From Bacteroidales bacterium (GTDB lineage: Bacteria; Bacteroidota; Bacteroidia; Bacteroidales; B18-G4): a DNA stretch of 52,247 bases. The stretch is from the NCBI GenBank assembly GCA_021107535.1, contig JAIOSQ010000016.1, positions 1 to 52,247 on the forward strand. Reading direction: 5' to 3'. Of this stretch, positions 8,498-40,122 are shown piece by piece. The first letter of the stretch is position 1. The number at the start of each line of letters is the position of its first letter. A program made the position numbers and the translations under genes. Below the pieces are notes generated by a model that did not search any database, was not told the origin of the DNA, and was given only the letters and a program-made list of their open reading frames with translations.

Positions 8498-9058
8498 ATG
8501 CATAACACAATCATCGCGCAACGCTATGCAAAGGCAGTCTTCGAATTGGCCCTGGAAATGAATTTACTGGAAGAAATAAAGGCCGATATGGAACTCATTT
8601 CTTCGATTTGTGCTGATAATAAAGACTTTATCCGTATGCTTAACAGCCCCGTTATCCGTACAGATAAAAAAATAAAGATCCTGAAGTCTGTTTTTGAAAA
8701 AGAGATCAGCGATATCAGCATGCGCTACCTGGTGATCATCACCAACAAAATGAGAGAAAAGTATATCCGTGATATTGCTGATGAATTTCTTAGCGTTTAC
8801 AAGAAATTCAAGAACATTTTTACGGTACATTTTGCAAGTGCCCGGGAGATCACTGATGAGATCCGTAAAAAGGTCATAAAGCTTCTCGAGGATCAAACCA
8901 AAGGAAACATTGAGCTTATTGAAGAAGTGAAAGAAGACCTTATCGGAGGATTTGTAATGAATTATGATGATTATAAATACGATGCGAGCATTGCATACCA
9001 GCTCAAGAAATTAAAACACACTGCAGCTGAGATCAATCTATACGTCAGAGGAATTTAA
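8498..9058 (+). CDS. atpH: F0F1 ATP synthase subunit delta (OSCP)
   Basis: N-terminus [13 protein letters not shown], about 186 aa, located between atpF and atpA. Confidence 0.85.
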
Positions 9059-9072
9059 AAAACACAAATGAT

Positions 9073-10656: not shown

Positions 10657-10680
10657 GACGAAAAAAATAAGTGAGAGATC

Positions 10681-11559
10681 ATGTCCAACCTTAAGGAAGT
10701 AAGAACAAGGATAGAATCTGTAAAATCAACACAGCAGATCACCAGTGCGATGAAACTCGTTGCTGCCTCCAAGCTCAGAAAGGCTCAGCGTGCCATCCTG
10801 CAGCTACGTCCTTATGCACAGAAATTGCAGGAGTTCCTGCAGGGGATGAGTACAGACCTCGACCAGACTGATGAAGCCGTGTATGCAAAAGAAAGAGAAG
10901 TAAAAAAGGTTCTGATCGTGCTTGTAACTTCAAACCGTGGTCTATGTGGGGCATTTAACGCCAATGTTGTAAAACTGGCTAATAATCTCATTCATACCAC
11001 TTACAAGGATGCATATGAACGCGAAGATCTGTCGCTGTACTGTATCGGTAAAAAGGGCGCAGAATATTTTAGCAAACATCAATACCCTGTCATAAAAGAA
11101 AATCTTGTTCTGTTCGATGATCTTAACTATGAAAATGCACTCCCCATCGCTGAAGAGTTGATGCAAAACTTCGCCGAAAAGAAATACGATCGCATTGATA
11201 TCATTTACAACCAGTTTAAGAATGCAGCAGTACAGGTCCTTTTGACAGAACAGTTCCTTCCCATACTCCCTCCGGAAGATGATGGTTCTGGTTTGCAGGT
11301 CGATTATATTTTCGAACCCAATAAGGAACAGATCATTGAAGAGCTTATACCCAAAAGCCTGAAAATCCAATTTTTCAAAGTGGTACTGGATTCCTTTGCT
11401 TCGGAACATGGTGCCCGTATGACTGCCATGCATATGGCTACCGACAATGCCAGTGAGCTTTTGAAAGAGCTTAAGCTTTCCTACAACAAAGCACGGCAGG
11501 CCTCTATCACAAATGATATCCTTGAGATTGTAAGCGGGGCAGAAGCTCTTAAGAATTGA
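10681..11559 (+). CDS. atpG: F0F1 ATP synthase subunit gamma
   Basis: N-terminus LKEVRTRIESVKSTQQITSAMKLVAASKLRKAQ and C-terminus ARQASITNDILEIVSGAEAL. No atpD/atpC follows. Confidence 0.93.
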   Translation: MSNLKEVRTRIESVKSTQQITSAMKLVAASKLRKAQRAILQLRPYAQKLQEFLQGMSTDLDQTDEAVYAKEREVKKVLIVLVTSNRGLCGAFNANVVKLANNLIHTTYKDAYEREDLSLYCIGKKGAEYFSKHQYPVIKENLVLFDDLNYENALPIAEELMQNFAEKKYDRIDIIYNQFKNAAVQVLLTEQFLPILPPEDDGSGLQVDYIFEPNKEQIIEELIPKSLKIQFFKVVLDSFASEHGARMTAMHMATDNASELLKELKLSYNKARQASITNDILEIVSGAEALKN

Positions 11560-25875: not shown

Positions 25876-26844
25876 CTAATTAATAGGCTCACCATCTATA
25901 TATTTGATCACTTTCAGTTCCCCCGTTTCGTCCCAGTACTTCCATTTCCCATTTTTTTTCCCATTACTATAGTTGCCCTGAAACTTCTTTTTACCATTCG
26001 GATAATTTTCAATCCATTTGCCATTGGGTACAGTATCATTTTTAAAATACTTCAGGTATTCTATGCCTCCGCTGGGATAATAGCGATATGCCATAATATT
26101 TGAGGGATCGCCCTCGAGATACAGATACTTTTCCGTTAACATTTCATTTATATAAATCTCTTTTCTGTATAGGATCTCCTTTTCCCAGGACTGATATACT
26201 TTGCTAACGATTTTACCGCTGTCATAAATTTCGTATAATTTCAATTTGTTATATAATGTCCAGAATTTAAGTTCAGCTTTTTGCTTGCTTTTCAGTAACT
26301 CAGTCCTGATCATAGGAAGTATTCGCGACTGTATACTTTCAAGTGATTCTCCAAATTCAGGTGTATAGGTTTTTCCTGATGTCCTGCGAAAAGAATTTTC
26401 AAATGCTTCATCCAGGCGGCGTAATTCGCTGACATAGGGTTCTCCAAGACCATCTTCGAAAGTAAGCAATAAATTATTCTGCCCCATTTTAAATCGGTAT
26501 AGTTTACCTTCTTTCCAGGCTTCAGACGACCTTGGCATATTATAATTTTCCGTAAATCCCGGCGGAGGTATCAAAGCATAATTCTGCCAGATCCCTGTTT
26601 TTTCCCCATGCTCATAATTACCTTTATAATACATCAGGTTGTGGTTATAAGATAAATAATATACCCACTTTCCGTGTGGTTTGCCATCAATATATTCCCC
26701 CTCACCGACTACCTCCCCCCTCATCTCTTTAGATTCATAATTTTGGAACTCCAAAATAATCAATGCTTCTCTTGACTGAGGCAGCATGCTCAGAGACTGG
26801 ATCAGGCAAATACCGGTCATTAAAAGTTTGAAAGGGCTTTTCAT
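25876..26844 (-). CDS. MORN-variant repeat (YwqK-like) protein, secreted
   Basis: Repeated G-x-W/K units are present: DGKPHGKWVYY, GEKTGIWQNY, PNGKWIENYPNGKKKFQGNYSNGKKNGKWKYWDETG. Confidence 0.7.
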   Translation of the reverse strand: MKSPFKLLMTGICLIQSLSMLPQSREALIILEFQNYESKEMRGEVVGEGEYIDGKPHGKWVYYLSYNHNLMYYKGNYEHGEKTGIWQNYALIPPPGFTENYNMPRSSEAWKEGKLYRFKMGQNNLLLTFEDGLGEPYVSELRRLDEAFENSFRRTSGKTYTPEFGESLESIQSRILPMIRTELLKSKQKAELKFWTLYNKLKLYEIYDSGKIVSKVYQSWEKEILYRKEIYINEMLTEKYLYLEGDPSNIMAYRYYPSGGIEYLKYFKNDTVPNGKWIENYPNGKKKFQGNYSNGKKNGKWKYWDETGELKVIKYIDGEPIN

Positions 26845-26885
26845 TTATATCTTCGTGATTAATCAGGCATTGATAATAGTATTGT

Positions 26886-27776
26886 TTAATTAATAAGATT
26901 AAGCCTGATTCCAACACTTAAGCTAATGTTACTGAATGAATACGCATTTTTTAAAAGCTTTGTCGGTGAGGTTTCTGACTCGTTTTCAGTTGAATAATAC
27001 GTATCCTCAAATTCAATATATCTTTCATTAATAGTTAATGTATTTAACATATCCTTTCCCCTGTATTTATACTCAGTATACTCTCCGGAAGTCGGGATGT
27101 AGCTTATTGCTGTATATGAGCATTCGCTAAAGAATTTCAGGTCTTTTGCGAGAATAATTTCAAATCCCACAGAAACCATATACCCAAGGTTTAGATGGCT
27201 CTTATATTCAAAAACCCAGGTATAATCTTCTGTGGGGTAGTAATTGGGGTGAGTATTATAAATTCTTATTTGGGATTCCCTGGTCATTGATGCTATTCCA
27301 ATAACTCCCCCAAGTTTAATATATGGCCGGAAATTATCCCCCCCGCCCCAAAATACGAGATTAGGTTTCAGTCCATACATTTTACCGGTATATACTTCCT
27401 CTGTATGGAAATCAACCTGGTATTGCGAATATAGCGTGTTGAGCTCCTCATAATTCAGCGTATGCTTACTGCTTTTATGATAAAAGCCTGTTATCTCAAC
27501 TGAAATATGCTTTCCAAGAAAACTTCCCAGGCTTGCTTCAACATTTAGCCCCTGCCCGAGTGAAAAACTTTTCAATTCATACTTTGAATATCCTTCAATC
27601 GAATCTAAATAGATTTGGTTATAGTCTGATCTGAGTTTGTAATCGTCTTTGTTTATTCCTAAACCGTAACCAATGTTGGCCTTGATGTATAGCTTTTGTG
27701 AGAAGGTATCCGTATGGAAAAAGACAGATGTCGTTAAGAGTATGATAACTCCAAATTTATATGCAATCTGATTCAT
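26886..27776 (-). CDS. Outer-membrane beta-barrel protein, hypothetical
   Basis: Start moved to MNQIAYKFGVIILLTTSVFF (signal peptide). Beta-strand periodicity and a C-terminal ...GIRLNLIN. Confidence 0.6.
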   Translation of the reverse strand: MNQIAYKFGVIILLTTSVFFHTDTFSQKLYIKANIGYGLGINKDDYKLRSDYNQIYLDSIEGYSKYELKSFSLGQGLNVEASLGSFLGKHISVEITGFYHKSSKHTLNYEELNTLYSQYQVDFHTEEVYTGKMYGLKPNLVFWGGGDNFRPYIKLGGVIGIASMTRESQIRIYNTHPNYYPTEDYTWVFEYKSHLNLGYMVSVGFEIILAKDLKFFSECSYTAISYIPTSGEYTEYKYRGKDMLNTLTINERYIEFEDTYYSTENESETSPTKLLKNAYSFSNISLSVGIRLNLIN

Positions 27777-27894
27777 TATGAAAATTTTGGTTTTTTTCCG
27801 TGAATTATACGCAGCCCAAATATAGAAATTAATAATCAAAAAAAAGAGGCTGTCTCAAAAGTTTTTCCCAGGGTCATTTACTTGTTGTGCTCAT

Positions 27895-28119: not shown

Positions 28120-28325
28120 AAAAAAAATATATGCCTGTTTTGGCTATTGAAACAAAATATTGCAAATTTTACTAAAGTGAGTGATGTTCACGATGATTTT
28201 TATCAAAAAATCCAAAAACACACTGCATAATAAAGCATTTTATTAAAAATTGACACCATTGCTTGTTTTTACATATGCCTCAGTCATATTATGCATAAAA
28301 TCATTCTTCGTTCTGATTTTTTCGG

Positions 28326-28356
28326 TTGACAATCAATCATGTATTGCTTAATTTTA
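28326..28356 (+). promoter_or_regulatory. Candidate promoter of the nine-gene operon (TTGACA-N17-TAATTTTA)
   Basis: TTGACA at 28326-28331 and TAATTTTA (one mismatch to TAnnTTTG) at 28349-28356, 43 nt upstream of the ATG at 28399. Confidence 0.35.
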
Positions 28357-28398
28357 TCAGTTAAACACACGAATGATGATTTAAAACGGGGTTGAAAA

Positions 28399-29400
28399 AT
28401 GCTTACAGAAAAAGAAATAATCTGCCTATTTTTAAAAAAATTACCAAAGAATGAGCATCATTGTAATAAGTTTTTTGAATCGGATGCTGAAATAATAATT
28501 TATAATGGGAAAAAACTTCTTTTTACAACTGATGAATTTTCTCAAGAAGACCTGTTCAGGGATCACGATCCTTATGTTCTGGGATGGAATGTGGTTGTTT
28601 GCACTATAAGCGATATTCTGGCCAGTGGAGGTCAACCGAAGTTTTATGCGCAGACCGTTCAGATAGCAAAGCATTGGAATAAAAATTATATTGAAGAGTT
28701 TGCCCGGGGGATAAGTGAAGCAATGATTAAATCCCATGTTACATTTATTGGTGGAGATCTTGGGTCGGGAACCAACTGGCACTATACTGGTATTTGCATT
28801 GGCGAGGCAAAGAATGCTATTACCAGAAAGGGGGCCAGTCCCGGTGATACAATATTTATTACCGGTAAAGTAGGTGCCGGAAACCTGGAGGCAGCCTTAT
28901 CCCTTTATTCCGAAAATAAAAGTATCACCGAACTTTCAACAGGTCTTAGTGGCACTTTTAAGTTGAGGTTGAACGAATCTGCCCTTATCAAAGATTTTGC
29001 CTCAAGCTGTATTGATACCAGCGACGGTGTACTCAGCGGTATAAATACATTGGCTGATATCAATAAAGTCGGTTACCGGATGACCAATATTCCCTACATT
29101 TATGAAGGGAAATTGGTATGCACACTATTATCTAAGCCCACAACACTATTATTTATGGGCGAATGTGGAGAATATGAATTGCTTTTTACGGTTCCTGAAG
29201 AGAAAAAAAATATTTTTCTAAATCTTGTTGATAAGTACAATTACCCCATTCATGAAATTGGCCTGATCACCAAAGCTAAGGAAAGGACCTTAGAGGAAGA
29301 TCGCAAGCTTATTCATTTTCAAGATTTTAATATTTCTGCCAGAAGCTTTGAAAATGTTAAAGACTATTTAAATGAACTGTTTAAATATGTATCCTCATGA
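28399..29400 (+). CDS. AIR synthase-related (PurM/ThiL superfamily) ATP-dependent enzyme
   Basis: ThiL/PurM N-domain pattern SDAEIIIY..KLLFTTDEFSQEDLF..DPYVLGW..VVCTISDILASGGQP, then a GGDLG block and a C-terminal PurM-C-like domain. Confidence 0.8.
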   Translation: MLTEKEIICLFLKKLPKNEHHCNKFFESDAEIIIYNGKKLLFTTDEFSQEDLFRDHDPYVLGWNVVVCTISDILASGGQPKFYAQTVQIAKHWNKNYIEEFARGISEAMIKSHVTFIGGDLGSGTNWHYTGICIGEAKNAITRKGASPGDTIFITGKVGAGNLEAALSLYSENKSITELSTGLSGTFKLRLNESALIKDFASSCIDTSDGVLSGINTLADINKVGYRMTNIPYIYEGKLVCTLLSKPTTLLFMGECGEYELLFTVPEEKKNIFLNLVDKYNYPIHEIGLITKAKERTLEEDRKLIHFQDFNISARSFENVKDYLNELFKYVSS

Positions 29401-30689
29401 AAACATCAATCCAAAAACGAGTAGTTGTAACAGGTATTGGCCCGGTAACTCCCATTGGTATTGGGAAAGATGATTTCTGGAATAACCTTTTTAACAAACA
29501 GAAAATTGTTCAAAAAATTCCTGAAAGCTTTACAAAGAATCACCATTTTCATTCAAGATTTTATATCCCCTACCCGAAGTTTTTTCTTGAAGATTATGGC
29601 TTCTCAAATAAGTATAATTCAGTTATGGAAGAGACCTCAAAATTATCAGTAATAGGCACAAAGCTGGCACTTGAGGATGCAGGTTTTCACATGACTGGGA
29701 ATTTGCCGGATGAGCCATGGCTTATAGAGAATTCTGCCATAATCCTTGGGATAGGCATATGCAGTTTGAAGGCAGCTTTCCAGGCCTATGTTGCTCATAG
29801 TTTTGGCACTGATACAGATTTTCTTGAGAAAAATGGAATAAATGCGAGGTATAACAGAATGGTTATTCCCACCATCATGCCTAATTCTGCCAGTAGCTGG
29901 ATTTCGGTTTTATTTAACATTCACGGTGCGGCATACACGATAAATGCTTCCTGTGCATCCGGCACTTATTCCGTAGTTGAAGCATTTCGTAAAATCAGGG
30001 ACGGATACCATGACCTTGTGATATGTGGTGGTGTAGAATGTTTGCAGGATGACAGCGGAACAATCATGCGAGGTTTTGATTCTTTAGGTGCATTGACAAA
30101 GTCTGAGAACGGCTTGCCCAAGCCTTTTTCCAAAGACAGAAGTGGCTTTTTGTTCTCTGAAGGAGGAGCTTGCATACTTATCCTCGAAGAATATGAATCA
30201 GCAATTAAGCGTGGCGCTGAAATTTATGCAGAAATTGATGCCTGTGAATTTAACAGTGATGCTTATAATATCGTTCAGATTGATCCGTCGGGAAGTAGGA
30301 TAAAAAGCATATTTAGCAAATTATCCGAAGGCAAATCCATCGATTACATTAACGCTCATGGGACAGCTACTTTTCATAATGATCAGGTTGAGAGAGAGGT
30401 AATTAAAGAGGTTTTTGGCGACAAAACCACTCAACCACTGATCAATTCAACAAAAAGTATTCTTGGTCATTCTATTGGTTCAAGCGGTGCCATTGAGGTT
30501 GGGGTTACAGCACTTTCGGTTAAAAACTCAAGCATTCATGCCAATATATCTGAAAACACATTTGAAGACCTTAACCTCGCCACTGAGAACACAGTTGGCA
30601 AAATCAGCTATGCTATTACTACATCATATGGATTTGGAGGTCATAATGTCGGTATACTTCTTAAACAACATCAGGATAAAAGAACATGA
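29397..30689 (+). CDS. Beta-ketoacyl-ACP synthase (KAS I/II type, Cys-His-His)
   Basis: VVVTGIGPVTPIG, active-site INASCASG, INAHGTAT, SILGHSIGSSG. ATGA overlap with the upstream gene. Confidence 0.88.
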   Translation: MKTSIQKRVVVTGIGPVTPIGIGKDDFWNNLFNKQKIVQKIPESFTKNHHFHSRFYIPYPKFFLEDYGFSNKYNSVMEETSKLSVIGTKLALEDAGFHMTGNLPDEPWLIENSAIILGIGICSLKAAFQAYVAHSFGTDTDFLEKNGINARYNRMVIPTIMPNSASSWISVLFNIHGAAYTINASCASGTYSVVEAFRKIRDGYHDLVICGGVECLQDDSGTIMRGFDSLGALTKSENGLPKPFSKDRSGFLFSEGGACILILEEYESAIKRGAEIYAEIDACEFNSDAYNIVQIDPSGSRIKSIFSKLSEGKSIDYINAHGTATFHNDQVEREVIKEVFGDKTTQPLINSTKSILGHSIGSSGAIEVGVTALSVKNSSIHANISENTFEDLNLATENTVGKISYAITTSYGFGGHNVGILLKQHQDKRT

Positions 30690-31732
30690 AGGGAAATGAT
30701 AAACATAGGGTATTTATTACCGGAGCAAATGGCCTGATTGGTAGTCATATTACTGAATACTTCAGTGATATGAAAATAAGCCTCGTTTGTGGGGTAAGAA
30801 AGTCAGCTGACATTTCACATATCAGCAATTTACCTGTTGAGTTCAGGTATATTGATATCAGGCATCTCGATTCGCTTATAACCAGCTTCAACGACTGCGA
30901 TTTTGTCATACATACAGCCGGGCTCACAAACGACTGGAGCAAATACAGGGATACATATGAAACAAATGTTGTCGGCACCTTAAATGTGCTGCGAGCATGT
31001 AAAATCAATGGTATTAAAAATGTAATTATTACAGGGTCTATTGCAAGCTATGGAGAAGAAAATTCAATTATTATCAAAGACGAAAACTCTCCTTTTAAGC
31101 CACGTCAACATTATTTTCTTGAAAAACTTATCCCCTCCCGGATGAACTTTTACAGGATTTCGAAGGCAGAGTGTACCAGACAAGCAACAGATTTTGGCAG
31201 TAAGAATAATCTTAACATAACAATTATTGAGCCTGTGTGGGTTTATGGGGAATATGAATTTTCGTCCGGCTTTTATGAATACTTAAAAATTATCAAGTCG
31301 GGTATCTCCTTTTTTCCCGGCAGTAAGAAAAATAAATTCCATGTCATATATGCCAGGGACCTGGCAAAAGCATATTACCTGGCCTACGATAAAAATCTTT
31401 CAGGAATTAATAGATTCATTATCGGCAATAATAATATAGATTCGATGGAGTACATCTATTCATTATTCTGCAAGCAAATTAACAGTAAAAAACCCCGAAA
31501 TATTCCACGCCTGCTTGCAAATCCTGTCGGTATAGCTCTTGAGTTCTTTGCCGAGATATTCAATTTAAAAAATCCTCCGGCTTTAACCAGGGCTCGCGTA
31601 GATATGATGTATGACAACATTGAATACAGTATAAAAAAAGCTGAACACATATTAGGATTTAAAAATGAATTTACCCTGGAAGAGGGTGTTCACCGGACAG
31701 TAAGCTGGTATATTAAAAACAAATATCTCTAA
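30686..31732 (+). CDS. NAD(P)-dependent epimerase/dehydratase-family SDR (probable ketoreductase)
   Basis: VFITGANGLIGSH Rossmann motif and YRISK catalytic Y-x3-K. ATGA overlap with the KS gene. Confidence 0.85.
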   Translation: MKGNDKHRVFITGANGLIGSHITEYFSDMKISLVCGVRKSADISHISNLPVEFRYIDIRHLDSLITSFNDCDFVIHTAGLTNDWSKYRDTYETNVVGTLNVLRACKINGIKNVIITGSIASYGEENSIIIKDENSPFKPRQHYFLEKLIPSRMNFYRISKAECTRQATDFGSKNNLNITIIEPVWVYGEYEFSSGFYEYLKIIKSGISFFPGSKKNKFHVIYARDLAKAYYLAYDKNLSGINRFIIGNNNIDSMEYIYSLFCKQINSKKPRNIPRLLANPVGIALEFFAEIFNLKNPPALTRARVDMMYDNIEYSIKKAEHILGFKNEFTLEEGVHRTVSWYIKNKYL

Positions 31733-33034
31733 ATGATGAAAATGCTAAGAGTTAAGAAGATAATTGGACAGAAAAAGAAATGGGTCGATCTACGGATCAT
31801 AATCATCACATTTCTGTTCTTTTTGTCACAAATTATAAGGGGAAATATCAGGCTTAAATATTTTTTAAGGGTATTAAAAAGACTATTATTTTTCTTGTCA
31901 ATGATGAAACACAATAAATACATTAGAATTGGGAGAAAGATAAAAATCAACTTGTATGTGCCTGCATTTCCAAGCAGGGCATTTTTCACTGCCTGCTATA
32001 AAGTTGCAGAATTTGAAAACAAAATGCCAAGTGTCACGGCATTGGTGTCCATTACATCCGCCTGTCGATTTAATTGTAAGCATTGTTATCAGAAGTTTGA
32101 TAAGGGTAAAGATATTGAGCTCAATTTATTGACAGACACTATCAATAAGTTACAGGATATGGGTATTGCTTTCTTTAATATTGAAGGAGGTGAGCCTTTC
32201 ATTGTTTTCGATCGATTGCTGGAAGTATGCAAAACTATCGACAACAGGTCTGAAATATTAATTAATTCCACAGGTGATGGTATGACATATGAAAAGCTGG
32301 CGGAATTGAAAAAACTTAAAAATTTATACGGGATCATGTTTTCCCTGCATACAAGTCATGCTGAAGGTTTGAATGAGTTCATGGGAAGCGATCATGCTTT
32401 TAATACCTTGGAAAACGGAATCGGCCTTTGCCACGAAGCAGGGATCCCTGTCACTTTCAATTCCTGCATTATGAAAGAAGAGTTTTATGATGGCACCTTT
32501 GAAAAAGTGATGGACCGGGCTAAAAAATTCAATGGTGCCATACTTCAATTGATCAAGCCAAAACCAGCCGGAGGCTGGCTGGAATCAGGTACAGATAATT
32601 TCTCTGAAGAAGACATAAAGGTGGTATATGAGAAAACAAGAAAATATAACCAGGACAAGGATTTTATGGATTATCCCTTCATCGTACCAATGGCTATTGA
32701 GGAAAGCAAGGAGTTGTTTGGTTGTACTGCCGGAGGTACTGACCGCTTCTATTTAAATGCCAAAGGTGATGTTCAGCCCTGCGAATTTCTGAATATATCA
32801 TTTGGGAACATTAATAATGAGCCTTTTGAAATGATATATGATAAAATGAGGCAACACTTTGAGGTTCCGGGCGATTGTTTGTTATGTGAAGAATACTCAA
32901 AAAATATCTATGATATATTTAAACAACATAAACTTGATTCGTTGCCATTGCCGCCTGATCTCTCGGCCAAAGTGTATGGGCAATGGAACAGAGGTGAGCC
33001 TTCTGACTTTTATAGAAAAATTGAAAAAATCTAA
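31733..33034 (+). CDS. Radical SAM enzyme with N-terminal hydrophobic segment and C-terminal auxiliary Cys-rich (SPASM/twitch-like) region
   Basis: CRFNCKHC (Cx3Cx2C), FNIEGGEPF, and C-terminal FGCTAGGTDRFYLNAKGDVQPCEF plus GDCLLCEE. The ATG abuts the upstream TAA. An alternative internal start (MMKHNKY) is possible. Confidence 0.85.
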   Translation: MMKMLRVKKIIGQKKKWVDLRIIIITFLFFLSQIIRGNIRLKYFLRVLKRLLFFLSMMKHNKYIRIGRKIKINLYVPAFPSRAFFTACYKVAEFENKMPSVTALVSITSACRFNCKHCYQKFDKGKDIELNLLTDTINKLQDMGIAFFNIEGGEPFIVFDRLLEVCKTIDNRSEILINSTGDGMTYEKLAELKKLKNLYGIMFSLHTSHAEGLNEFMGSDHAFNTLENGIGLCHEAGIPVTFNSCIMKEEFYDGTFEKVMDRAKKFNGAILQLIKPKPAGGWLESGTDNFSEEDIKVVYEKTRKYNQDKDFMDYPFIVPMAIEESKELFGCTAGGTDRFYLNAKGDVQPCEFLNISFGNINNEPFEMIYDKMRQHFEVPGDCLLCEEYSKNIYDIFKQHKLDSLPLPPDLSAKVYGQWNRGEPSDFYRKIEKI

Positions 33035-33039
33035 GATCA

Positions 33040-34074
33040 ATGAACTATTCTAGGATATATCAAAATAGCATTTATAGATTTCTTAAAGTCTATATAAAAT
33101 CCATGCGGCTGTATTATTCCTTCGTAACAGGTATTGCCGGATGGATTGGTGTAGCATTTTACCAATACATTGCTACCTCTGAAGGACCAAGAGGTACTTC
33201 GAATATGATAAAAACTATAGAAACCCCCACACAACTTGATAAAAAACTTCTAATACTGTTTATCCTATTCCTTGCCTGGGGAATAAATCAGATAATTAAT
33301 GATTTCCTTGGATACAAAGAAGACAAGATCAATGCACCCATGCGGCCGATGGTAAGTGGTGAACTTTCAAGGTATAAGGCTCTCATCCTTTCAATGTTCC
33401 TTATGCTTCTTATCCTTCTCGTAACCTGGTTTTACCTTGAGCCCATTGCAGTTATCCCCCTGGTGATTGGGGCCTCATTAAATGTTATTTATGAATATGC
33501 CAAAGGCTACGGCATCTGGGGAAATATATCTTTCGGTGTAATGATCAGTATGTGTGGATTATTTGGATTTTTTGCTTCAGGACCTATGGAAATATATTTC
33601 ACCCGAAGCAGGGTTAGTGCCCTCATATTCATTGCTGTTATTAACGGGTTGATGACTTATTATACCTATTTCAAAGATTATATGGGTGATAAGTTAACTG
33701 GCAAGAAAACTATTGTGGTAAAATTTGGGCTTGAAAAAAACAAAATTATTGCCATTATCGCGTCCTTTCTCCCCTCTATTTTTTTTCTAACTGGTTATTT
33801 CGGTTTCGGAGCTTTCCAGATAGAGCTAAACAACATCTTTATTATCCTTGGTTTTATGACCATCTTCCTACAGGTATGGACAGGAGTGTTGTATTACAGG
33901 AATCCCAGAGGAGAAATGACATATTATTCCCTCGTGACAAATTTCAGGGCATGCACCTGTGGTCAGGCAACGATTATAGCGCTATTCAATCCCACACTTG
34001 GGCTAATACTTTTTTTAATGTCTTATGTATTTGTTGGTTTCCTTTTTAACCTTCATACAAACATAAAAGCTTAA
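33040..34074 (+). CDS. UbiA-family prenyltransferase (integral membrane)
   Basis: About 8-9 TM helices. The first motif is NQIINDFLGYKEDKINAPMRPMVSG and the second is YFKDYMGDKLTGKKT. Confidence 0.85.
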   Translation: MNYSRIYQNSIYRFLKVYIKSMRLYYSFVTGIAGWIGVAFYQYIATSEGPRGTSNMIKTIETPTQLDKKLLILFILFLAWGINQIINDFLGYKEDKINAPMRPMVSGELSRYKALILSMFLMLLILLVTWFYLEPIAVIPLVIGASLNVIYEYAKGYGIWGNISFGVMISMCGLFGFFASGPMEIYFTRSRVSALIFIAVINGLMTYYTYFKDYMGDKLTGKKTIVVKFGLEKNKIIAIIASFLPSIFFLTGYFGFGAFQIELNNIFIILGFMTIFLQVWTGVLYYRNPRGEMTYYSLVTNFRACTCGQATIIALFNPTLGLILFLMSYVFVGFLFNLHTNIKA

Positions 34075-34084
34075 TTCCTGGAGT

Positions 34085-35290
34085 ATGGAAATTTTTGCGA
34101 AAGCAAGCATTGGCAATTGCATCTTAAAAAACAGGATCATTCGTTCTGGTACCTATGAAGGGATGTGTGATGATAAAGGATTCCCAGGCGCTCAATATTA
34201 TTCACTATATGAAACACTTGCAAAAAATGATATTGGCGGAATCATTACCGGTTTCGCATACATATCTGAAGAGGGGAAGGCAATGCAATCAGGACAGGCA
34301 GGAATTGATGAAAAGGCAAAGATTCAATACTATAAGAAGTTGACAGACATTGTTCACCATTATAATTCAAAAATCTTCCTACAGATTGCACATACGGGAA
34401 GACAAACTATTCAATCTGTCACCCAAAATACGGTTGTCGGATGCTCAAAGAAAAAGTCAATATATTTCAGGGAAACCCCGAAAATATTATCTACTTCTGA
34501 GATTTACACTCTTATCGAAAAATTCGGAAGATCTGCACTTTACGCAAAAGAAAGTGGTTTTGATGGTGTGCAACTGCAGGCCGCCCATGGGTACCTGATC
34601 CATCAATTCCTAATGCCATCAGTAAACAATCGGAATGATGAGTTTGGTATTGATCCTGAATATGGTATCGGATGCAGATTTCTCGGGCTCATTATTGATA
34701 ATATCAGAGAAAAATGCGGTATTGAGTTTCCCCTGCTGGTTAAAATCAGCGGAAGCGATGATTATAGGGTGAAATTCACAGAAAAGAACTTTAAAGACCT
34801 AATTGCATATCTTGATAAAAAAAGAGTAGATGCCATTGAGATCAGCTATGGATCAATGGATTACGCATTAAATATTTTTAGAGGGGATTTCCCAACTGAG
34901 TTGATATTGGCAAAAAATCCGTTTTTTAAAACACATAATCCATTGAGAAGAATTTTTCTCCGGAACATCTTGTTCCCATATATCCGGTCAAAACTATATG
35001 CTTTTTCACCCATATATAATCTAAAATATGCGATTATGGCTAAGCAGCATTCCGGGATACCGATTATATCAGTTGGGGGCTATAGAAACCTGGAAGAAAT
35101 TGAATTTGCAATAATGAAGAATCATATAGATTTTGTTGGCATTTGCAGACCATTTATTGCCGAACCGGATTATATAAAGAAGATCAGCAAAAATAAATCG
35201 CACCAATCATCATGCATTAACTGTAATTATTGCGCGATAATGTGCGATACTAAACACTATACTAAATGCTATAAAACTACAACATCATGA
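34085..35290 (+). CDS. Old-yellow-enzyme family NADH:flavin oxidoreductase with C-terminal Cys cluster
   Basis: LKNRIIRS, FLQIAHTGRQ, GFDGVQLQAAHGYLIHQFL, GICRPFIAEPD and C-terminal CINCNYCAIMC. Confidence 0.85.
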   Translation: MEIFAKASIGNCILKNRIIRSGTYEGMCDDKGFPGAQYYSLYETLAKNDIGGIITGFAYISEEGKAMQSGQAGIDEKAKIQYYKKLTDIVHHYNSKIFLQIAHTGRQTIQSVTQNTVVGCSKKKSIYFRETPKILSTSEIYTLIEKFGRSALYAKESGFDGVQLQAAHGYLIHQFLMPSVNNRNDEFGIDPEYGIGCRFLGLIIDNIREKCGIEFPLLVKISGSDDYRVKFTEKNFKDLIAYLDKKRVDAIEISYGSMDYALNIFRGDFPTELILAKNPFFKTHNPLRRIFLRNILFPYIRSKLYAFSPIYNLKYAIMAKQHSGIPIISVGGYRNLEEIEFAIMKNHIDFVGICRPFIAEPDYIKKISKNKSHQSSCINCNYCAIMCDTKHYTKCYKTTTS

Positions 35291-35529
35291 AAACAATTGA
35301 AGAAGCAGTAATCACTGCCCTGAAAGAAAATACCAGTTGGGACGGTGAGATCAAGATGGAACAAACACTCAGGGATGAACTGGGAATTGATTCATTTGGT
35401 GTTCTGATGATTATTAACACACTGGAAGATGAATTCGGTATTGAAATCAGCAATGAAGATATTGAAGGACTGGGTACTGTTGCTGATATTATTAACCGGC
35501 TAAATGAAATTCTTTCAGTAAATGCCTGA
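35287..35529 (+). CDS. Acyl carrier protein
   Basis: 80 aa, acidic, phosphopantetheine attachment motif LGIDSFGVL. ATGA overlap with the upstream gene. Confidence 0.88.
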   Translation: MKTIEEAVITALKENTSWDGEIKMEQTLRDELGIDSFGVLMIINTLEDEFGIEISNEDIEGLGTVADIINRLNEILSVNA

Positions 35530-36706
35530 AGACATGAACTTACAGCAATTCTATCAACGTTTTAACGTAGATTATGAACTTGTTCGGAAGGCAGGGTTCA
35601 ATCCTTATTACCCGGTGATCGAATCAGGCCTTGATGATATAATCATCGTTGAAGGAAAGAAATTTATTGACCTCGCATCGAACAATTACCTCGGCCTAGC
35701 CAATGATATACGCCTTAAAGATGCAGGAAAACTGGCAATAGAAAAATATGGCATGTCATTATGTGCTACTCCTATTGCTTCTGGATATTCTGAGTTGTAT
35801 GATATGGTAAGACACAAACTTTCAGAATTTGTAGGTTTGGAAAACACCATTTTATATCCATCCTGCTATCAAGCCAATAATGGTTTATTCAATGTGATAG
35901 CAGGCAGGGAGGATATTGCTATTATCGATCGATGCTCCCATTCTTCATTAATAGAAGGAGTTAAAAGTGCCGGATGCAAGATATGGCCCTTCCGGCATAA
36001 TGATATGACCCACCTGGAAAAAGGACTGAAAATATCGCAGAAATATCGTCAGGCCTATGTGATCACAGAATCCGTATTCTCAACCGAAGGAACCATTGTG
36101 CCATTTAATGAAATCGTTGCATTATGTGATAAGTATGGTGCACTTCCGGTTATTGATGATTCACATGGTATTGGTGTTATTGGCAAAACAGGCAGAGGAA
36201 TCCTTGAACATGCAGATATAAAAGACTATAACGGAATTTATACTGCATCCCTGGGTAAATCACTGGCCAATTCGGGCGGCATGATCAGCGGGAAAAAAGA
36301 GATTATTGATTTTCTGAAATACTATAGTTCACACCTGGTATATTCAACTTCAATAATTCCTTCATCTCTGGCAGGAATAGATGCTATTCTTGACATTATA
36401 GATAAAGAATTTCCGGAGAGAAGCAAAAAAATGTGGCATTATACAAAGCTAATTTGTGATACTCTTATTGAATTAGATTATAAGGTATCTAACAGTTCAA
36501 CAGCCATCACATCAATAAAATCAGGCAATCCCTTAGAGACATTGCAATTGACACGAAAAATCTTTGACAGGGGAATACTGGTAACTCCGTTTATCTATCC
36601 CTCTGTACAATATAATGAAGGTAGAATAAGATTAATTGCCGGTGCTAACCTGACCCAGCCAACATTGGATAAAGCCCTGAAAGCATTCCGGAATATCAAT
36701 GACTAA
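35522..36706 (+). CDS. PLP-dependent alpha-oxoamine synthase (serine palmitoyltransferase / AONS / KBL family)
   Basis: NNYLGL, DDSHGIGVIG and PLP-lysine block ASLGKSLANSGG. 8-nt overlap with the ACP gene. Confidence 0.88.
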   Translation: MPEDMNLQQFYQRFNVDYELVRKAGFNPYYPVIESGLDDIIIVEGKKFIDLASNNYLGLANDIRLKDAGKLAIEKYGMSLCATPIASGYSELYDMVRHKLSEFVGLENTILYPSCYQANNGLFNVIAGREDIAIIDRCSHSSLIEGVKSAGCKIWPFRHNDMTHLEKGLKISQKYRQAYVITESVFSTEGTIVPFNEIVALCDKYGALPVIDDSHGIGVIGKTGRGILEHADIKDYNGIYTASLGKSLANSGGMISGKKEIIDFLKYYSSHLVYSTSIIPSSLAGIDAILDIIDKEFPERSKKMWHYTKLICDTLIELDYKVSNSSTAITSIKSGNPLETLQLTRKIFDRGILVTPFIYPSVQYNEGRIRLIAGANLTQPTLDKALKAFRNIND

Positions 36707-37673
36707 ACATTTGAAATACATGTTCATAATAAATCCCTCTTCACATAGTGGGCGCAGCAGGAAAAAATTCCCTTTGCTGATCCGTTTGCTTGATGAAGCC
36801 GGAATAGATTATGAATATAAGATCACAAAAAATATAGATGATGCCTACAGGTATTCTTTAGAGGCCAACAAAAATAAACTCGATGTGATAACAGCTGTTG
36901 GGGGAGATGGAACAATCAATGCTGTTTTGAATGGGTTTTATGATACCTTCGGCAAAAGGATATCATCTTCTAAATTTGGAGTAATTTATACCGGTACCAG
37001 TCCAGATTTCTGTAAGAGCTATGGCATTCCGACGAATATTAAGCAAGCAGTGACCGTATTACTTGATAATAAATCCCGTTTTGTGAAAGTTGGGAAAATC
37101 ATACTTTCCAGACATAACAAAATTGAAAACCATGGTTTAAGTATTGATAAGATTCCGGATGCACAGGTGAAATATTTTGCCTGTTGTGCAAATATAGGCC
37201 TTGGTGCTTCCCTGGCCAGAATAGCAAACAAGGGTGTTCGAAAATATTTAGGCGATTTCGCCGGAACTTTTTTTTCTTTGCTAAAAGTGATCCTCAGCTA
37301 TAAACCCGGAAATATTACAGAAATAATTGATGGTCATACGGTCAATATTTCAAAATTCTATAACCTTTCCGTTGGGATAACACCTTTTATTGCCTCGGGC
37401 ATTAAAATACAGCATAAGCTGAATGAAGACGATGACAGGTTTTATTGTTTGCTTGTGAAGAATTTAAGTCTGCTGAAGCTGCCCGGTTTACTCAGAAAGG
37501 TATATAGCGGAAAACCAATAAAAACAACAAGTTATTTATTCCTTCATTATGCCCGCAACATAGAAATTGAAGGTAATTATAAAAATCCCGATGTAGAATT
37601 CGACGGTGACCCTGCAGGATTTCTTCCCTGCAGGATTGGTCCTGTTGAAGACAGGCTTGAATTAATTTCATGA
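36699..37673 (+). CDS. Diacylglycerol-kinase-catalytic-domain lipid kinase (YegS/sphingosine-kinase-like)
   Basis: FIINPSSHSGRS and VGGDGTINAV motifs. 8-nt overlap with the upstream gene; last gene of the operon. Confidence 0.85.
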   Translation: MTKHLKYMFIINPSSHSGRSRKKFPLLIRLLDEAGIDYEYKITKNIDDAYRYSLEANKNKLDVITAVGGDGTINAVLNGFYDTFGKRISSSKFGVIYTGTSPDFCKSYGIPTNIKQAVTVLLDNKSRFVKVGKIILSRHNKIENHGLSIDKIPDAQVKYFACCANIGLGASLARIANKGVRKYLGDFAGTFFSLLKVILSYKPGNITEIIDGHTVNISKFYNLSVGITPFIASGIKIQHKLNEDDDRFYCLLVKNLSLLKLPGLLRKVYSGKPIKTTSYLFLHYARNIEIEGNYKNPDVEFDGDPAGFLPCRIGPVEDRLELIS

Positions 37674-37746: not shown

Positions 37747-38946
37747 TCATTTCGTCCAATCAAGCAAACGCTGTTCCCCCTCAATTTTACGGATCTCACT
37801 GATCTCCTGGGAAACCTCTACCACGCCACAATATTTATTCTTTTCATCACGCAGGGCAAAATACTGGATCAGGATATACACTTTGCCCATCTTGATCCAG
37901 AAACTGGCTTTATCCTGCCTCCCATTGCGGAATTCTTCGATGATCTCTTCCACGATATCGATGCTTTCGGGAGGATGGCAGTTCCTGACATCCCTTCCCA
38001 CGATCCCTTTTGCACGCGGAAAGATCCTGTGCTTCGGGGTCGAAAAGTACTTTACTTTATTATGCTCATCCACATAGGTAATATCCACCGGAAGATGGTT
38101 GAACAACAGCATAATTTGCTTTACACTAAGCAAGCCTGTTCCCAGGTTGACTTCGCCCCTGATCATTTTTGGTGGCTTTTCAAGATTTTCCACTTCGAAA
38201 TCAGGCTGTACATATGGAAATTTCAGGTCGCGGCTGTCATCAAGCATTTTCCTGAGCTCCCCTGCCGGAATGCTTTGTTGCATTAGCGGAAATAGTATCT
38301 TTTCCTCCCTGAATTTGATGGCAAGCATGTTAAAGAACAGGTCGCCGGCCAACTTGTTGAATTTCTTAAGGTCCAGTTCAACTTTTTTGAGAATATTGAT
38401 GATCCCTTTCCTGTTTCGCCGGATATCATCATGAAATGACCACATCACCTGAAGGCACCTGTAATCAGGCCAGTGCTTTTCAAGTACAGGGAAAAGTACA
38501 TTTTCCTTGATCACATAATGAGCATCAAAGATTTCCAGTCCGGAAAAAAGTTTCAAAAGTTTTTTCTTTACTTCCAGTTCATTTTTGTTTTGATTGATCT
38601 TTCTGATCAAAGGACGGATGGCTTTCAGGCGTATATCCATCTCAGCATTGTTCCTTACCAGATAGTCGGTAAAGCTGTCCTTTTCCGGTTCCTGTCCCGG
38701 ATAATTTTTCAGGGATGTATGAAAGAGGTTCAGAAGCTTATTTACACCCGTTTTCAATACAGGCATAGGAATGTTGAGTTGCACCAGGTGATCCACCAGG
38801 GCAAGGACTGCCGAAGGTGTGATTTCATCCATCAGGTGCCGGTTTTTCCGAACGGTGTCAGCTGGACTTTCTGCATGGATAATAGCCAGGCTGAAATCAA
38901 TCAGCTCCTGCGGAATATTCTCTTTACGGCTTCTCTTTTCGGACAT
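37747..38946 (-). CDS. DUF438 / hemerythrin-like / PAS-type domain protein
   Basis: The C-terminal LPVDITYVDEHNKVKYFS...IFPRAKGIVGRDVRNCHPPES...FWIKMG is the DUF438-protein PAS-like module. The central region has H-rich hemerythrin-like helices (HYVIKENVLFPVLEKHWPD, WSFHDDIRR). Confidence 0.75.
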   Translation of the reverse strand: MSEKRSRKENIPQELIDFSLAIIHAESPADTVRKNRHLMDEITPSAVLALVDHLVQLNIPMPVLKTGVNKLLNLFHTSLKNYPGQEPEKDSFTDYLVRNNAEMDIRLKAIRPLIRKINQNKNELEVKKKLLKLFSGLEIFDAHYVIKENVLFPVLEKHWPDYRCLQVMWSFHDDIRRNRKGIINILKKVELDLKKFNKLAGDLFFNMLAIKFREEKILFPLMQQSIPAGELRKMLDDSRDLKFPYVQPDFEVENLEKPPKMIRGEVNLGTGLLSVKQIMLLFNHLPVDITYVDEHNKVKYFSTPKHRIFPRAKGIVGRDVRNCHPPESIDIVEEIIEEFRNGRQDKASFWIKMGKVYILIQYFALRDEKNKYCGVVEVSQEISEIRKIEGEQRLLDWTK

Positions 38947-39041
38947 GGAAATTCATTCTTGTATTAGAATGCAAAGATATCACAATATAATTGAGCGATT
39001 GAGCGATATGGTTTATTACGGTCTGCTCTGAGAAAAATATT

Positions 39042-39049
39042 TAGTTTTG
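39042..39049 (+). promoter_or_regulatory. -7 promoter box TAGTTTTG
   Basis: Exact TAnnTTTG match, 20 nt upstream of the Rrf2 ATG. A tandem attgagcg-attgagcg direct repeat lies about 40 nt further upstream. Confidence 0.45.
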
Positions 39050-39068
39050 TCAAATTAATCCTAATTAT

Positions 39069-39482
39069 ATGTTCCTGAATAAAACTACAAAATACGCATT
39101 GAGTATCCTTGCCTTTATGGCCAACGAACCTATGACACTGTACTCATCCGAATTTCTTCACGAGAAATTGAATATTCCCAGGAGATACCTGCGGCAACTG
39201 CTCACCGATCTCTCTAAACACGGATTTATCACAAGCAGCCGTGGAAGAAGTGGCGGCTTCCGGCTTAGCAAGGATGCCAAAAAGCTAAGCGTAGCTGATG
39301 TGATTGATAGCCTTGAAGGACTTGAGAACTATGAAAGTTGTTTCTTCGGAATTAAAAATTGCATCAATGACAAGTCCTGTGCCATGCATAAACCATGGCT
39401 TGATATTCGTGAGGAATTGTTTAAAACCCTTCATAACACAACATTATATGACCTTGGGCGTGATATTATTATAAAATTTTGA
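39069..39482 (+). CDS. Rrf2-family transcriptional regulator with Fe-S-type Cys triad
   Basis: N-terminal wHTH (TKYALSILAFMA...) and three cysteines in CFFGIKNCINDKSC (C-x6-C-x5-C), similar to the IscR/NsrR cluster ligands. Confidence 0.85.
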   Translation: MFLNKTTKYALSILAFMANEPMTLYSSEFLHEKLNIPRRYLRQLLTDLSKHGFITSSRGRSGGFRLSKDAKKLSVADVIDSLEGLENYESCFFGIKNCINDKSCAMHKPWLDIREELFKTLHNTTLYDLGRDIIIKF

Positions 39483-39544
39483 TTTTTTTTAAATTTATAT
39501 ACTACTTTTGGGTGGTATTTTATTATTAACTAAAAAAATTAACC

Positions 39545-40099
39545 ATGACCGACTCTTCACTAGTTTTGTATGGACAAACCATTGCATACACGTGCTATGC
39601 CATTGTGATCATACTTGTGATCGCATGGTTCGGGTTTGTTGTTACCCGCAAGGGAAAGGGAAACAAGGTAAGCAAGACCTTATTTTATTCTTTTGTAACC
39701 ATGCTGGTCATTCTCGGAGTATCTCTTCACATTGTGACCTTCAACACCATTCCATGGGTATCCATGGATCTCGACAGGAAAAATATCCAGGCTGACCAGG
39801 TATTCGACATCACCATGGAAAATCATCAGTTCATACTTCCTCAAGAGAAATTTGTTATTAACTGCGGCGAAAAAGTGATGTTCAATGTAACATCCAACGA
39901 TCTTACTTATGGCTTCGGCCTCTTCAGGAAAGACAATTCAATGATGTTCCAGATGCAGGTAGTGCCGGGGCATGTGAACGATATTCTCTGGGAATTCAAT
40001 GAGAATGGTATTTATACCATCCGATCTACTGAATATTCCGGCCCGAAAGGGCATCAGATGATCATAAAAGATGTTGTTCATGTGATCGGATGTGAGTAA
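39545..40099 (+). CDS. Heme-copper oxidase superfamily subunit II-like cupredoxin protein lacking CuA ligands
   Basis: Two N-terminal TM helices plus a cupredoxin domain. The CuA positions read DLTYGF (His->Tyr) and STEYSGPKGHQM (both Cys->Ser). Confidence 0.75.
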   Translation: MTDSSLVLYGQTIAYTCYAIVIILVIAWFGFVVTRKGKGNKVSKTLFYSFVTMLVILGVSLHIVTFNTIPWVSMDLDRKNIQADQVFDITMENHQFILPQEKFVINCGEKVMFNVTSNDLTYGFGLFRKDNSMMFQMQVVPGHVNDILWEFNENGIYTIRSTEYSGPKGHQMIIKDVVHVIGCE

Positions 40100-40122
40100 A
40101 AAAGTTTTCAAACTAAAAATTA

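Follow-up and report, generated by a model that had tools for sequence, protein, structure and literature searches.

The Caulobacter-type sphingolipid locus, as Stankeviciute et al. reportedly described it in 2022, is said to consist of an alpha-oxoamine synthase (AOS), an acyl carrier protein (ACP), a short-chain dehydrogenase/reductase (SDR) of the epimerase fold and a kinase of the DAGK fold. In the capnine or sulfonolipid route (the cysteate acyltransferase CapB/SulA together with the reductase CapC), an AOS and a reductase act on acyl-ACP in Bacteroidota. Archaeal digeranylgeranylglyceryl phosphate (DGGGP) synthase (DGGGPS) prenylates the free hydroxyl of a single-chain lipid that bears a phosphate on the neighbouring carbon. 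Furthermore, there are precedents for two kinases that feed a diphosphate-ionising enzyme, namely ThiD/ThiE, HPPK/DHPS, MfnE/MfnF, and the phytol kinase and phytyl-phosphate kinase that supply the UbiA-family enzymes VTE2 and ChlG. Likenesses to each of these systems are found in a single nine-gene operon at positions 28399 to 37673 of contig JAIOSQ010000016.1 (Bacteroidales bacterium, assembly GCA_021107535.1), of which a stretch of 52,247 nucleotides, referred to here as the window, was analysed. The operon encodes, in order, a ThiL-like kinase (g1), a ketosynthase (KS, g2), an SDR (g3), a radical S-adenosylmethionine (SAM) enzyme (g4), a UbiA-superfamily enzyme (g5), an Old Yellow Enzyme (OYE) family reductase (g6), an ACP (g7), an AOS (g8) and a DAGK-fold kinase (g9). 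The product of the operon is probably a lipid not yet described, because no described pathway has this gene set.

As in the Caulobacter-type sphingolipid core, the AOS is directly preceded by its own ACP and followed at once by a DAGK_cat kinase, and an epimerase-fold SDR is present; the likeness of this SDR to CerR extends to the shared epimerase-fold class only. Unlike that core, the cluster lacks a ceramide synthase (bCerS), has an AOS of a separate clade and contains four extra co-conserved genes, and its hosts include monoderm Bacillota. The cluster also differs from the capnine and sulfonolipid route, with which it shares an AOS and a reductase on acyl-ACP, in that CapB and SulA are farther from g8 than Kbl and Spt are, no cysteate synthase gene is present and the hosts extend beyond Bacteroidota. 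In the manner of the two-step phosphorylation systems, genes for a predicted alcohol kinase and a predicted phosphate kinase stand beside that for an enzyme of the diphosphate-leaving-group type, and the DAGK-fold and ThiL-like genes are coupled in most loci. However, the kinases here are of the DAGK and PurM/ThiL folds, and the alcohol would be an AOS-made lipid. A full-text literature search, which subscription-only papers lay outside, found no description of the nine-gene set, and within that reach the original prediction's statement that no pathway with this gene set has been characterised is sustained. The enzyme families are all known and the AOS, ACP, SDR and kinase logic is that of sphingoid-base synthesis; it is the combination, its breadth and the missing description that make the cluster a strong lead.

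The distribution of the cluster was determined by scanning one genome per species, 185,579 species in all, with an alignment of UbiA homologues. A relative of g5 is encoded at 211 loci, the best 80 of which were retrieved with 10 kb on either side, and the locus counts given below refer to these 80. Their gene content was established by tblastn with the nine window proteins and by an independent clustering of open reading frames (ORFs). At least six of the nine genes co-occur in 67 of the 80 loci, an outcome that had been set beforehand as a test of the original prediction. The seven-gene core (ThiL-like kinase, SDR, radical SAM, UbiA, OYE, AOS and DAGK-fold kinase) is present in 51 loci, and 37 have all nine genes. 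The loci belong to Bacteroidota (34), Bacillota (21, including 13 from Desulfosporosinus as well as Petroclostridium sp. X23 and Anaerovorax), Cloacimonadota (7), Omnitrophota (4), Ignavibacteria (3), metagenome-assembled genomes (MAGs) labelled Proteobacteria (2) and unclassified genomes (3), with one locus each from Verrucomicrobiota, Auribacterota, Marinisomatota, Fibrobacterota, Calditrichota and Delongbacteria. The cluster thus spans at least 11 phyla, and hundreds of metagenomic homologues have identities of 55-83%. Hosts such as Desulfosporosinus, Cloacimonadota and Omnitrophota are typically anaerobic taxa.

The operon is conserved as a unit. The flanks differ in every genome, indicating that the gene set moves as a unit, and within 10 kb on either side no other gene family is conserved beyond a handful of loci, with the exception of an XRE-type regulator. 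This regulator, of about 150 residues, immediately precedes UbiA in 18 loci, almost all of them in Bacillota (for example L034:9527-9970 and L038:9535-10008); the window lacks it, as do nearly all other Bacteroidota loci. The GC content at third codon positions (GC3) is 0.31-0.39 in the cluster genes vs. 0.39-0.49 in housekeeping genes of the same window, which is compatible with horizontal acquisition. When the eight larger proteins are compared, their matrices of pairwise distances show positive correlations (rho 0.36-0.80). Moreover, the catalytic residues, the cysteine motif of the OYE and the NDxxGxxED motif of UbiA are invariant across 50-77 orthologues. The claim that all motifs are intact stands for the eight other proteins and is not quite right for UbiA, whose first motif is altered.

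The gene order is circularly permuted between lineages, such that two modules swap. The order ThiL-(KS)-SDR-rSAM-UbiA-OYE-ACP-AOS-DAGK (rSAM, radical SAM) is found in Bacteroidota, Ignavibacteria and one MAG labelled Chromatiales, and UbiA-OYE-ACP-AOS-DAGK-ThiL-KS-SDR-rSAM is the order in the remaining lineages. The tightest junctions are those leading into and out of the DAGK-fold kinase gene: AOS and DAGK overlap in 44 of 60 loci, and DAGK and ThiL in 29 of 37. The occupancy of the KS and ACP positions was counted in the 56 loci that cover the relevant stretch, referred to as complete loci. Both genes are present in 42 of these, 11 have the ACP alone and three have neither; the ACP lies between OYE and AOS in 53. 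Since this occupancy varies, the unit is more accurately described as a core of seven genes, to which an ACP is almost always added and a KS is accessory. The nine-gene unit originally proposed is therefore conserved as an operon, with the reservation that roughly one complete locus in four lacks the KS. In Mangrovibacterium the place of the KS is taken by a 734-residue carbamoyltransferase of the NodU/CmcH type (L029:4198-6405 and L032:5401-7605), which suggests that the product has a free hydroxyl or amine and that its tailoring is lineage-specific.

The possibility was considered that the nine genes are members of housekeeping families. All nine proteins fall below every equivalog cut-off of NCBIfam, and because of this the nine genes are, by these models, not housekeeping thiL, fabF, acpP, bioF, kbl or spt; the condition that the KS and the ACP might be ordinary FabF and AcpP, named beforehand as a refutation, does not apply. 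The ThiL-like protein scores 149.7 bits with TIGR01379 (thiL, cut-off 184.15) and far lower with other ThiL models. Its nearest structure is Aquifex aeolicus ThiL (94 bits, aligned across 255 residues); D29, D45, D72, D206 and D209 align with the ATP/Mg site and, together with D120, are invariant in 67 orthologues. Public pipelines name its relatives thiamine-monophosphate kinase. The KS scores 277 bits with the FabF/KAS II model TIGR03150 (cut-off 493.75), and its triad C186/H321/H358 is invariant in 50 orthologues. The ACP, with S36 in a DSF motif, scores 50/71 bits (score/cut-off) or less with ACP equivalog models. The best NCBIfam matches of the SDR are HpnA (114 bits) and the OleD-type 2-alkyl-3-oxoalkanoate reductase (89 bits), both far under the cut-off; its G13xxGxxG and Y156/K160 (YxxxK) motifs are invariant in 67 orthologues, and its nearest solved structure is kavalactone reductase (62 bits). 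The DAGK-fold kinase scores 92.5 bits with TIGR00147, the YegS-type lipid kinase model (cut-off 118.65). It is nearest to DgkB (59 bits) among solved structures, and its GGDGT motif (68-72) is invariant in 65 orthologues. For every protein compared, even the closest solved structure is remote.

The AOS was examined further against BioF, Kbl and Spt. The PLP lysine K246 (SLGK246S), H140, D212, H215 and S243 do not vary among 67 orthologues, which places the protein in the alpha-oxoamine synthase superfamily. Its scores are 298 bits with the Kbl model NF005394 (cut-off 460) and 283 with the BioF model TIGR00858 (cut-off 426). With the three Spt models they are 282.5/640 for NF047600 (CFB), 202.4/500 for NF047599 (beta) and 161.2/670 for NF047603 (alpha). 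As a control, the verified Spt of Parabacteroides distasonis passed the Spt-CFB model with 683.8/640, and the designation of the AOS as Spt-type in the original prediction has to be withdrawn. Orthologues from Desulfosporosinus, Cloacimonadota and Ignavibacteria are also under the BioF, Kbl and Spt cut-offs, with Spt-CFB scores of 242-262/640. In a neighbour-joining tree, whose small reference set consisted of Escherichia coli BioF, E. coli Kbl and the verified P. distasonis Spt, 23 cluster AOS proteins were monophyletic in 100 of 100 bootstraps and separate from all three references, to which they are 27-33% identical. The expectation that the AOS would not fall within BioF or Kbl is thereby confirmed. 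The nearest structures are Kbl (226 bits) and Sphingobacterium Spt (200 bits), followed by CapB (28eh, 149 bits) and SulA (7u7h, 143 bits). Judged by its scores and its place in the tree, the AOS is a distinct subfamily that is Spt-like only loosely. The AOS genes of 33 Cloacimonadota MAGs have been classed as 'Spt-like', with bCerS and CerR absent within ten ORFs (Ding et al. 2024, PMC11334938). The loose likeness of the cluster AOS to Spt is probably how that listing arose, and the genes may be the same.

No other protein of the cluster is as well conserved as the UbiA enzyme (median identity 61%), although it is a polytopic membrane protein. Pfam UbiA matches it with 86.9 bits, and Foldseek gives a probability of 1.00 to 6m31, 4tq4 and 4od5. 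By sequence its nearest relative is the DGGGPS of Methanocaldococcus jannaschii (6m31, 36 bits, 23% identity). By fold DGGGPS is again the best match in a model of moderate quality, followed by archaeal UbiA homologues and then by the phosphoribosyltransferase Rv3806c and UBIAD1. However, the protein scores only 61.7/296 and 48.9/353 bits with the DGGGPS models NF009521 and NF009522 and falls outside that family. Its first aspartate motif reads N87-D88-x-x-G91-x-x-E94-D95, so that the central Asp of the canonical NDxxDxxxD is replaced by Gly, and the second motif, D213xxxD217, is intact. Both are invariant in 77 orthologues from all the phyla. A gene for geranylgeranylglyceryl phosphate (GGGP) synthase is not conserved near the cluster, a further difference from the DGGGPS system. 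In Cloacimonetes, DGGGPS has been found co-localised with GGGP synthase (Villanueva et al. 2020, PMC7852524); the possibility that g5 is the DGGGPS gene of that pair was rejected because GGGP synthase is not conserved nearby.

The radical SAM enzyme has an invariant C111x3C115x2C118 motif and further invariant cysteines at 233, 245, 331, 350 and 385. Only C331, C350 and C385 lie in the C-terminal domain, where C382 is a majority residue and Pfam SPASM scores 27 bits; from this pattern the domain looks more Twitch-like, with one cluster, than like a seven-cysteine SPASM domain. The N-terminal domain of about 100 residues is folded in the AlphaFold2 model (predicted local distance difference test, pLDDT, 91.4) and has no family match. 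A strongly hydrophobic 19-mer occurs in only 8 of 63 orthologues, and with the region confidently folded an N-terminal transmembrane anchor was rejected as a general feature. The nearest folds are SkfB, SuiB, CteB, PqqE, BlsE, viperin, MoaA and anSME, with template modelling (TM) scores of about 0.5; SkfB is the nearest solved structure by sequence (28 bits). Like Tes, Gms, Mss, GrsA/B, Cds, HpnH and other radical SAM enzymes that modify lipids, it has an auxiliary-cluster domain and belongs to a lipid-type operon of anaerobes. Identity with Tes, Gms or GrsA was rejected, as GDGT-MAS was not matched and a B12 domain is absent. A profile of 23 g4 sequences gave no match to Tes/GDGT-MAS in the PDB at E<=1, and GDGT-MAS was outside the Foldseek top 50. 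GrsA is a B12-dependent radical SAM enzyme (10.1101/2025.10.20.683597), and g4 is not GrsA-like because it has no B12 domain. A 2026 review of lipid-modifying radical SAM enzymes ties none of them to AOS or UbiA genes (PMC13459092).

The OYE-family protein contains the HTGR and AHGYL motifs, with H103, G105 and R106 of HxGR invariant. Its C-terminus carries the cysteines C377xxC380xxC383xxxC387...C395, invariant in 69 orthologues, which resemble the 4Fe-4S motif of FadH and the clostridial enoate reductases. The arrangement of an FMN TIM barrel followed by CxxCxxCxxxC is shared with these enzymes, and the FMN domain of 2,4-dienoyl-CoA reductase (1ps9) is among its two best PDB matches; together with YqjM-type OYEs it is the nearest solved structure, at about 110 bits. 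Unlike FadH and the enoate reductases, the protein ends after the cysteine motif at residue 401 and has no FAD or NAD(P)H domains; an external electron donor is therefore needed, presumably one such as ferredoxin.

A pathway can be proposed in which every step is drawn from family chemistry and gene coupling. A fatty acyl chain would be carried on the dedicated ACP and, in most lineages, be extended or loaded by the KS. The AOS would condense this chain decarboxylatively with a small amino acid to an alpha-amino-ketone lipid, the SDR would reduce the ketone to an amino-alcohol, and the DAGK-fold kinase would phosphorylate a hydroxyl. The ThiL-like kinase would then convert the monophosphate to a diphosphate, as ThiL does with thiamine phosphate, and the UbiA enzyme would carry out a coupling. 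Finally, the Fe-S/FMN ene-reductase would saturate a C=C bond conjugated to a keto group or thioester and the radical SAM enzyme would functionalise an unactivated C-H bond, so that the two together would replace O2-dependent lipid chemistry. The joint reading that the cluster forms a biosynthetic operon that is complete in itself and moves horizontally among anaerobes, and that it makes a phosphorylated sphingoid-like amino-alcohol lipid with Mg-diphosphate coupling of the UbiA type and oxygen-independent tailoring, is given a probability of about 0.5. Lipid character is supported at the sequence level by the dedicated ACP and FabF-like KS, the DAGK fold of g9, a UbiA enzyme nearest to DGGGPS and the pairing of AOS and DAGK genes at the Parabacteroides Spt locus. 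Anaerobic chemistry is supported by the invariant Fe-S motif of an OYE that has no NAD(P)H domain, by the radical SAM gene and by the typically anaerobic hosts.

Two variants of the coupling step are about equally likely, with a slight preference for the one in which the lipid diphosphate made by g9 and g1 is itself the electrophile that UbiA ionises. Within the scheme this variant is tentative; it has precedents in the two-kinase systems named above, it would explain why there are two kinases, why they are so tightly coupled and why the diphosphate motif of UbiA is altered, and it follows from it that an isoprenoid need not be involved. It would require a stabilised cation, such as the enol or enamine of a 3-keto-1-diphosphate, or an allylic alcohol. 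In the other variant, which is the one originally predicted and is a little less likely, UbiA would use a polyprenyl diphosphate to prenylate the hydroxyl or amine of the amino-lipid phosphate in the manner of DGGGPS, whose substrate topology would be mimicked by a sphingoid-base phosphate. A two-tailed acyl/isoprenoid phospholipid would result; this would explain why no ceramide synthase is present and agrees with what the closest homologue does. Other orders of the steps are of a similarly low likelihood.

Several points weigh against the proposed scheme. Each of its steps is a family-level analogy to characterised enzymes with 23-35% identity, and the UbiA model is of moderate quality (pLDDT 64.5). 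UbiA enzymes normally need an allylic or otherwise stabilised diphosphate, and a plain sphingoid diphosphate would be unsuited unless an enol, enamine or double bond is present. Prenylation of the amino-lipid phosphate, on the other hand, would give the ThiL-like kinase no obvious part to play. Sequence does not show which amino acid and which acyl chain the AOS takes, there being no reliable rule for reading its amino-acid specificity from active-site residues, and the chain supply is not fixed because the KS, and in three loci the ACP, is dispensable. Additionally, a specialised metabolite would fit equally well with a patchy occurrence in 211 of 185,579 species, with the XRE regulator and with low GC3.

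A specialised small molecule or cofactor is the strongest of the rival explanations, and is rather unlikely. The AOS product, possibly formed from a beta-ketoacyl-ACP supplied by the KS, would cyclise to a heteroaromatic or enaminone head group, the kinases would activate it and UbiA would prenylate it. The outcome would be an antibiotic, a signal or a redox lipid resembling a quinone. Aromatic rings are the substrates of most UbiA prenyltransferases characterised so far, which counts for this explanation; the nearest relative of g5 is however DGGGPS, a lipid-alcohol prenyltransferase, and not one of the aromatic prenyltransferases. The tailoring varies between KS, carbamoyltransferase and neither, as it does in natural-product clusters, and the nearest folds of the radical SAM enzyme are maturases of natural products and of ribosomally synthesised and post-translationally modified peptides. 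Even so, the 80 loci with their 10-kb flanks share no conserved gene for a cyclase, an aromatase, a transporter or resistance. The patchy distribution suggestive of horizontal transfer, the flanks that differ in every genome, the GC3 below that of housekeeping genes and the dedicated XRE regulator in Bacillota would all fit such a metabolite, but g9 is of a lipid-kinase fold, and the core works without the KS and therefore the beta-ketoacyl route cannot be general.

Less probable still is an ordinary sphingolipid route to ceramide or ceramide-phosphate, in which the AOS would be Spt, the SDR CerR-like and the DAGK-fold protein a ceramide or sphingoid kinase, with an unlinked ceramide synthase, and in which UbiA, the radical SAM enzyme, the OYE and the ThiL-like kinase would merely decorate the product. 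The reported composition of the Caulobacter-type locus, the 'Spt-like' label given to the AOS of the 33 Cloacimonadota MAGs (PMC11334938) and the Parabacteroides Spt, which adjoins a DAGK-family gene, are in its favour. Against this, the AOS fails all three Spt equivalog models and lies outside the verified Spt clade, and a ceramide synthase is found in none of the 80 loci. Moreover, the four additional genes are core rather than decoration because they are as strictly conserved as the sphingoid-like genes, UbiA most of all. At the P. distasonis locus (L085:1771-4128) the verified CFB-type Spt is divergently adjacent to the DAGK-family lipid kinase, which is 24% identical to g9; the canonical sphingolipid locus of Bacteroidales thus likewise pairs an AOS gene with a DAGK-fold gene.

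A chance juxtaposition of housekeeping genes (thiL, fabF, acpP, bioF or kbl, an epimerase), to which the names given by public pipelines (thiamine-monophosphate kinase, DGGGP synthase and similar) would point, is effectively refuted by synteny in at least 11 phyla, by the separate AOS clade and equivalog scores, by translational coupling throughout and by the absence of thiamine, biotin and fatty-acid genes nearby.

Thirteen loci have fewer than six of the nine genes. Ten of these are short or truncated where the contig ends, which leaves L033, L064 and L067. In Peptoclostridium litorale DSM 5388 (L064:9974-10999) a lone UbiA orthologue, 57% identical, lies among genes for a carnitine O-acyltransferase, a BCCT transporter and a class-III aminotransferase, with the other eight genes absent within 10 kb. 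An unclassified MAG (L033:3887-11035) has a rearranged partial set, DAGK-ThiL-SDR, with UbiA about 3 kb downstream, and adjoins a gene for a Ser/Thr kinase-WD40 protein; AOS, OYE, KS and ACP are absent in 21 kb, and the locus may represent either a copy in decay or a variant of the pathway. Both loci were examined as clues to function and gave no hint. Furthermore, none of the 120 best homologues of the ThiL-like, UbiA and radical SAM proteins is a fusion protein of the Rosetta-stone type. A plasmid-borne cluster was also considered and rejected, as none was found and the best AOS identity on a plasmid was at most 34%.

The coordinates are collected in Table 1. The ORF list bears out the nine consecutive forward-strand ORFs of the original prediction, with no gap above 10 nt, and Pfam bears out its nine domain assignments. 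Read from the sequence, ATGA overlaps are at 29397-29400, 30686-30689 and 35287-35290, and a stop codon abuts a start codon (TAAATG) at 31730-31735. Overlaps of 8 nt are ATGCCTGA at 35522-35529 and ATGACTAA at 36699-36706, and the remaining two junctions are gaps of 5 nt and 10 nt. All of the overlaps and the abutment that had been described are present. The one at 35522-35529 depends on the choice of AOS start codon: the ORF has two in-frame Met codons four codons apart (35522-35534), and public gene calls for the identical sequence take the second Met, at 35534 (390 residues), which removes the overlap between ACP and AOS.

Table 1. The nine genes of the operon and the region upstream of it, with positions in the window.
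Feature	Position	Strand	Predicted product	Pfam family or remark
Leader	28120..28398	+	AT-rich leader/promoter region upstream of operon	279 nt, 28% GC; intergenic by ORF list
g1	28399..29400	+	ThiL-like PurM-superfamily ATP-dependent kinase, 333 aa	AIRS, AIRS_C
g2	29397..30689	+	FabF-like elongating ketosynthase (KS), 430 aa, accessory	ketoacyl-synt N, C
g3	30686..31732	+	Extended (epimerase-fold) SDR, predicted ketoreductase, 348 aa	Epimerase/3Beta_HSD
g4	31733..33034	+	Radical SAM, SPASM/Twitch-type C-terminal domain, 433 aa	Radical_SAM, Fer4_12, SPASM
g5	33040..34074	+	UbiA-superfamily membrane transferase, 344 aa	UbiA
g6	34085..35290	+	OYE-family FMN ene-reductase, C-terminal Cys cluster, 401 aa	Oxidored_FMN
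g7	35287..35529	+	Dedicated acyl carrier protein (ACP), 80 aa	PP-binding
g8	35522..36706	+	Alpha-oxoamine synthase (AOS), 394 aa (possibly 390 aa)	Aminotran_1_2
g9	36699..37673	+	DAGK-fold (YegS/BmrU/DgkB-like) lipid kinase, 324 aa	DAGK_cat, YegS_C

The leader was searched for an RNA element and for promoter motifs. No Rfam family reached its gathering score in the leader or in the window, and at E<=1 the leader gave only a chance-level match; the idea that a riboswitch or leader RNA might point to the ligand was rejected on this ground. The Bacteroidota -7 box TAnnTTTG was not found in the leader region; a sigma-70-like match at 28392-28421 is at background frequency, as are the promoter and terminator consensus matches.

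Directly upstream of the operon and divergent from it, two tandem genes on the reverse strand (25876-27839) encode proteins of 322 and 317 residues without a Pfam match, and they are not kept beside the cluster in other genomes. The gene downstream of the operon is convergent. The downstream region 37747-41760 encodes a hemerythrin/PAS protein (reverse strand), an Rrf2-family regulator, a 184-residue protein without a family and a 545-residue protein of the COX1 superfamily, and looks like a nitric oxide or oxygen stress module with an NsrR-like regulator and a NorB-like oxidase or reductase. The rest of the window is ordinary chromosome, with ATP synthase genes, pheS, thymidine kinase, ornithine/aspartate carbamoyltransferase and outer-membrane protein genes besides this Rrf2/hemerythrin/COX1-like group. 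At 6447-11559 the genes for subunits a, b, delta, alpha and gamma of the F-type ATP synthase give way to one for ferritin rather than to those for beta and epsilon, and the ATP synthase operon appears to be split in this genome. No genes for thiamine, biotin, fatty-acid, isoprenoid or sphingolipid synthesis were found in the rest of the window, and neither bioA, bioB, bioD nor tdh is in the window. As originally stated for the operon, ceramide synthase, thioesterase, phosphopantetheinyl transferase and acyl-ACP synthetase domains are missing, and this holds for the flanks as well.

All nine genes are mis- or over-annotated in public databases, as thiamine-monophosphate kinase, DGGGP synthase, BioF, Kbl or 'Spt-like' genes. 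This distorts metagenomic inference on thiamine, on sphingolipid producers and on bacterial 'archaeal-type' lipids, for example in the Black Sea studies (PMC11334938, PMC7852524). The cluster has cultured hosts, namely Desulfosporosinus spp., Mangrovibacterium lignilyticum and Petroclostridium sp. X23, and is directly testable in them. If the product is a lipid, the operon would represent a new and widespread amino-lipid route in anaerobes, with unprecedented roles for a lipid-metabolism kinase of the PurM/ThiL fold, a UbiA enzyme of altered motif, an Fe-S OYE without a nucleotide domain and a new lipid-associated radical SAM family.

A more specific form of the product, unlikely as it stands, would be a hybrid of sphingoid and archaeol character: a membrane lipid of a class not known before, on an amino-alcohol rather than a glycerol backbone, with a C-C-bonded acyl chain introduced by the AOS and an isoprenoid chain introduced by UbiA, made without a ceramide synthase. 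Its head group would be a phosphate or pyrophosphate from the DAGK-fold and ThiL-like kinases, and the pathway would be oxygen-free. If true, gene transfer would have carried the route to such a lipid into anaerobes of at least 11 phyla. Some of the orphan N-containing lipids in anoxic waters and sediments could be explained by it, and so could 'Spt-like' and 'DGGGPS-like' genes that have been read as markers of sphingolipids or archaeal-type lipids.

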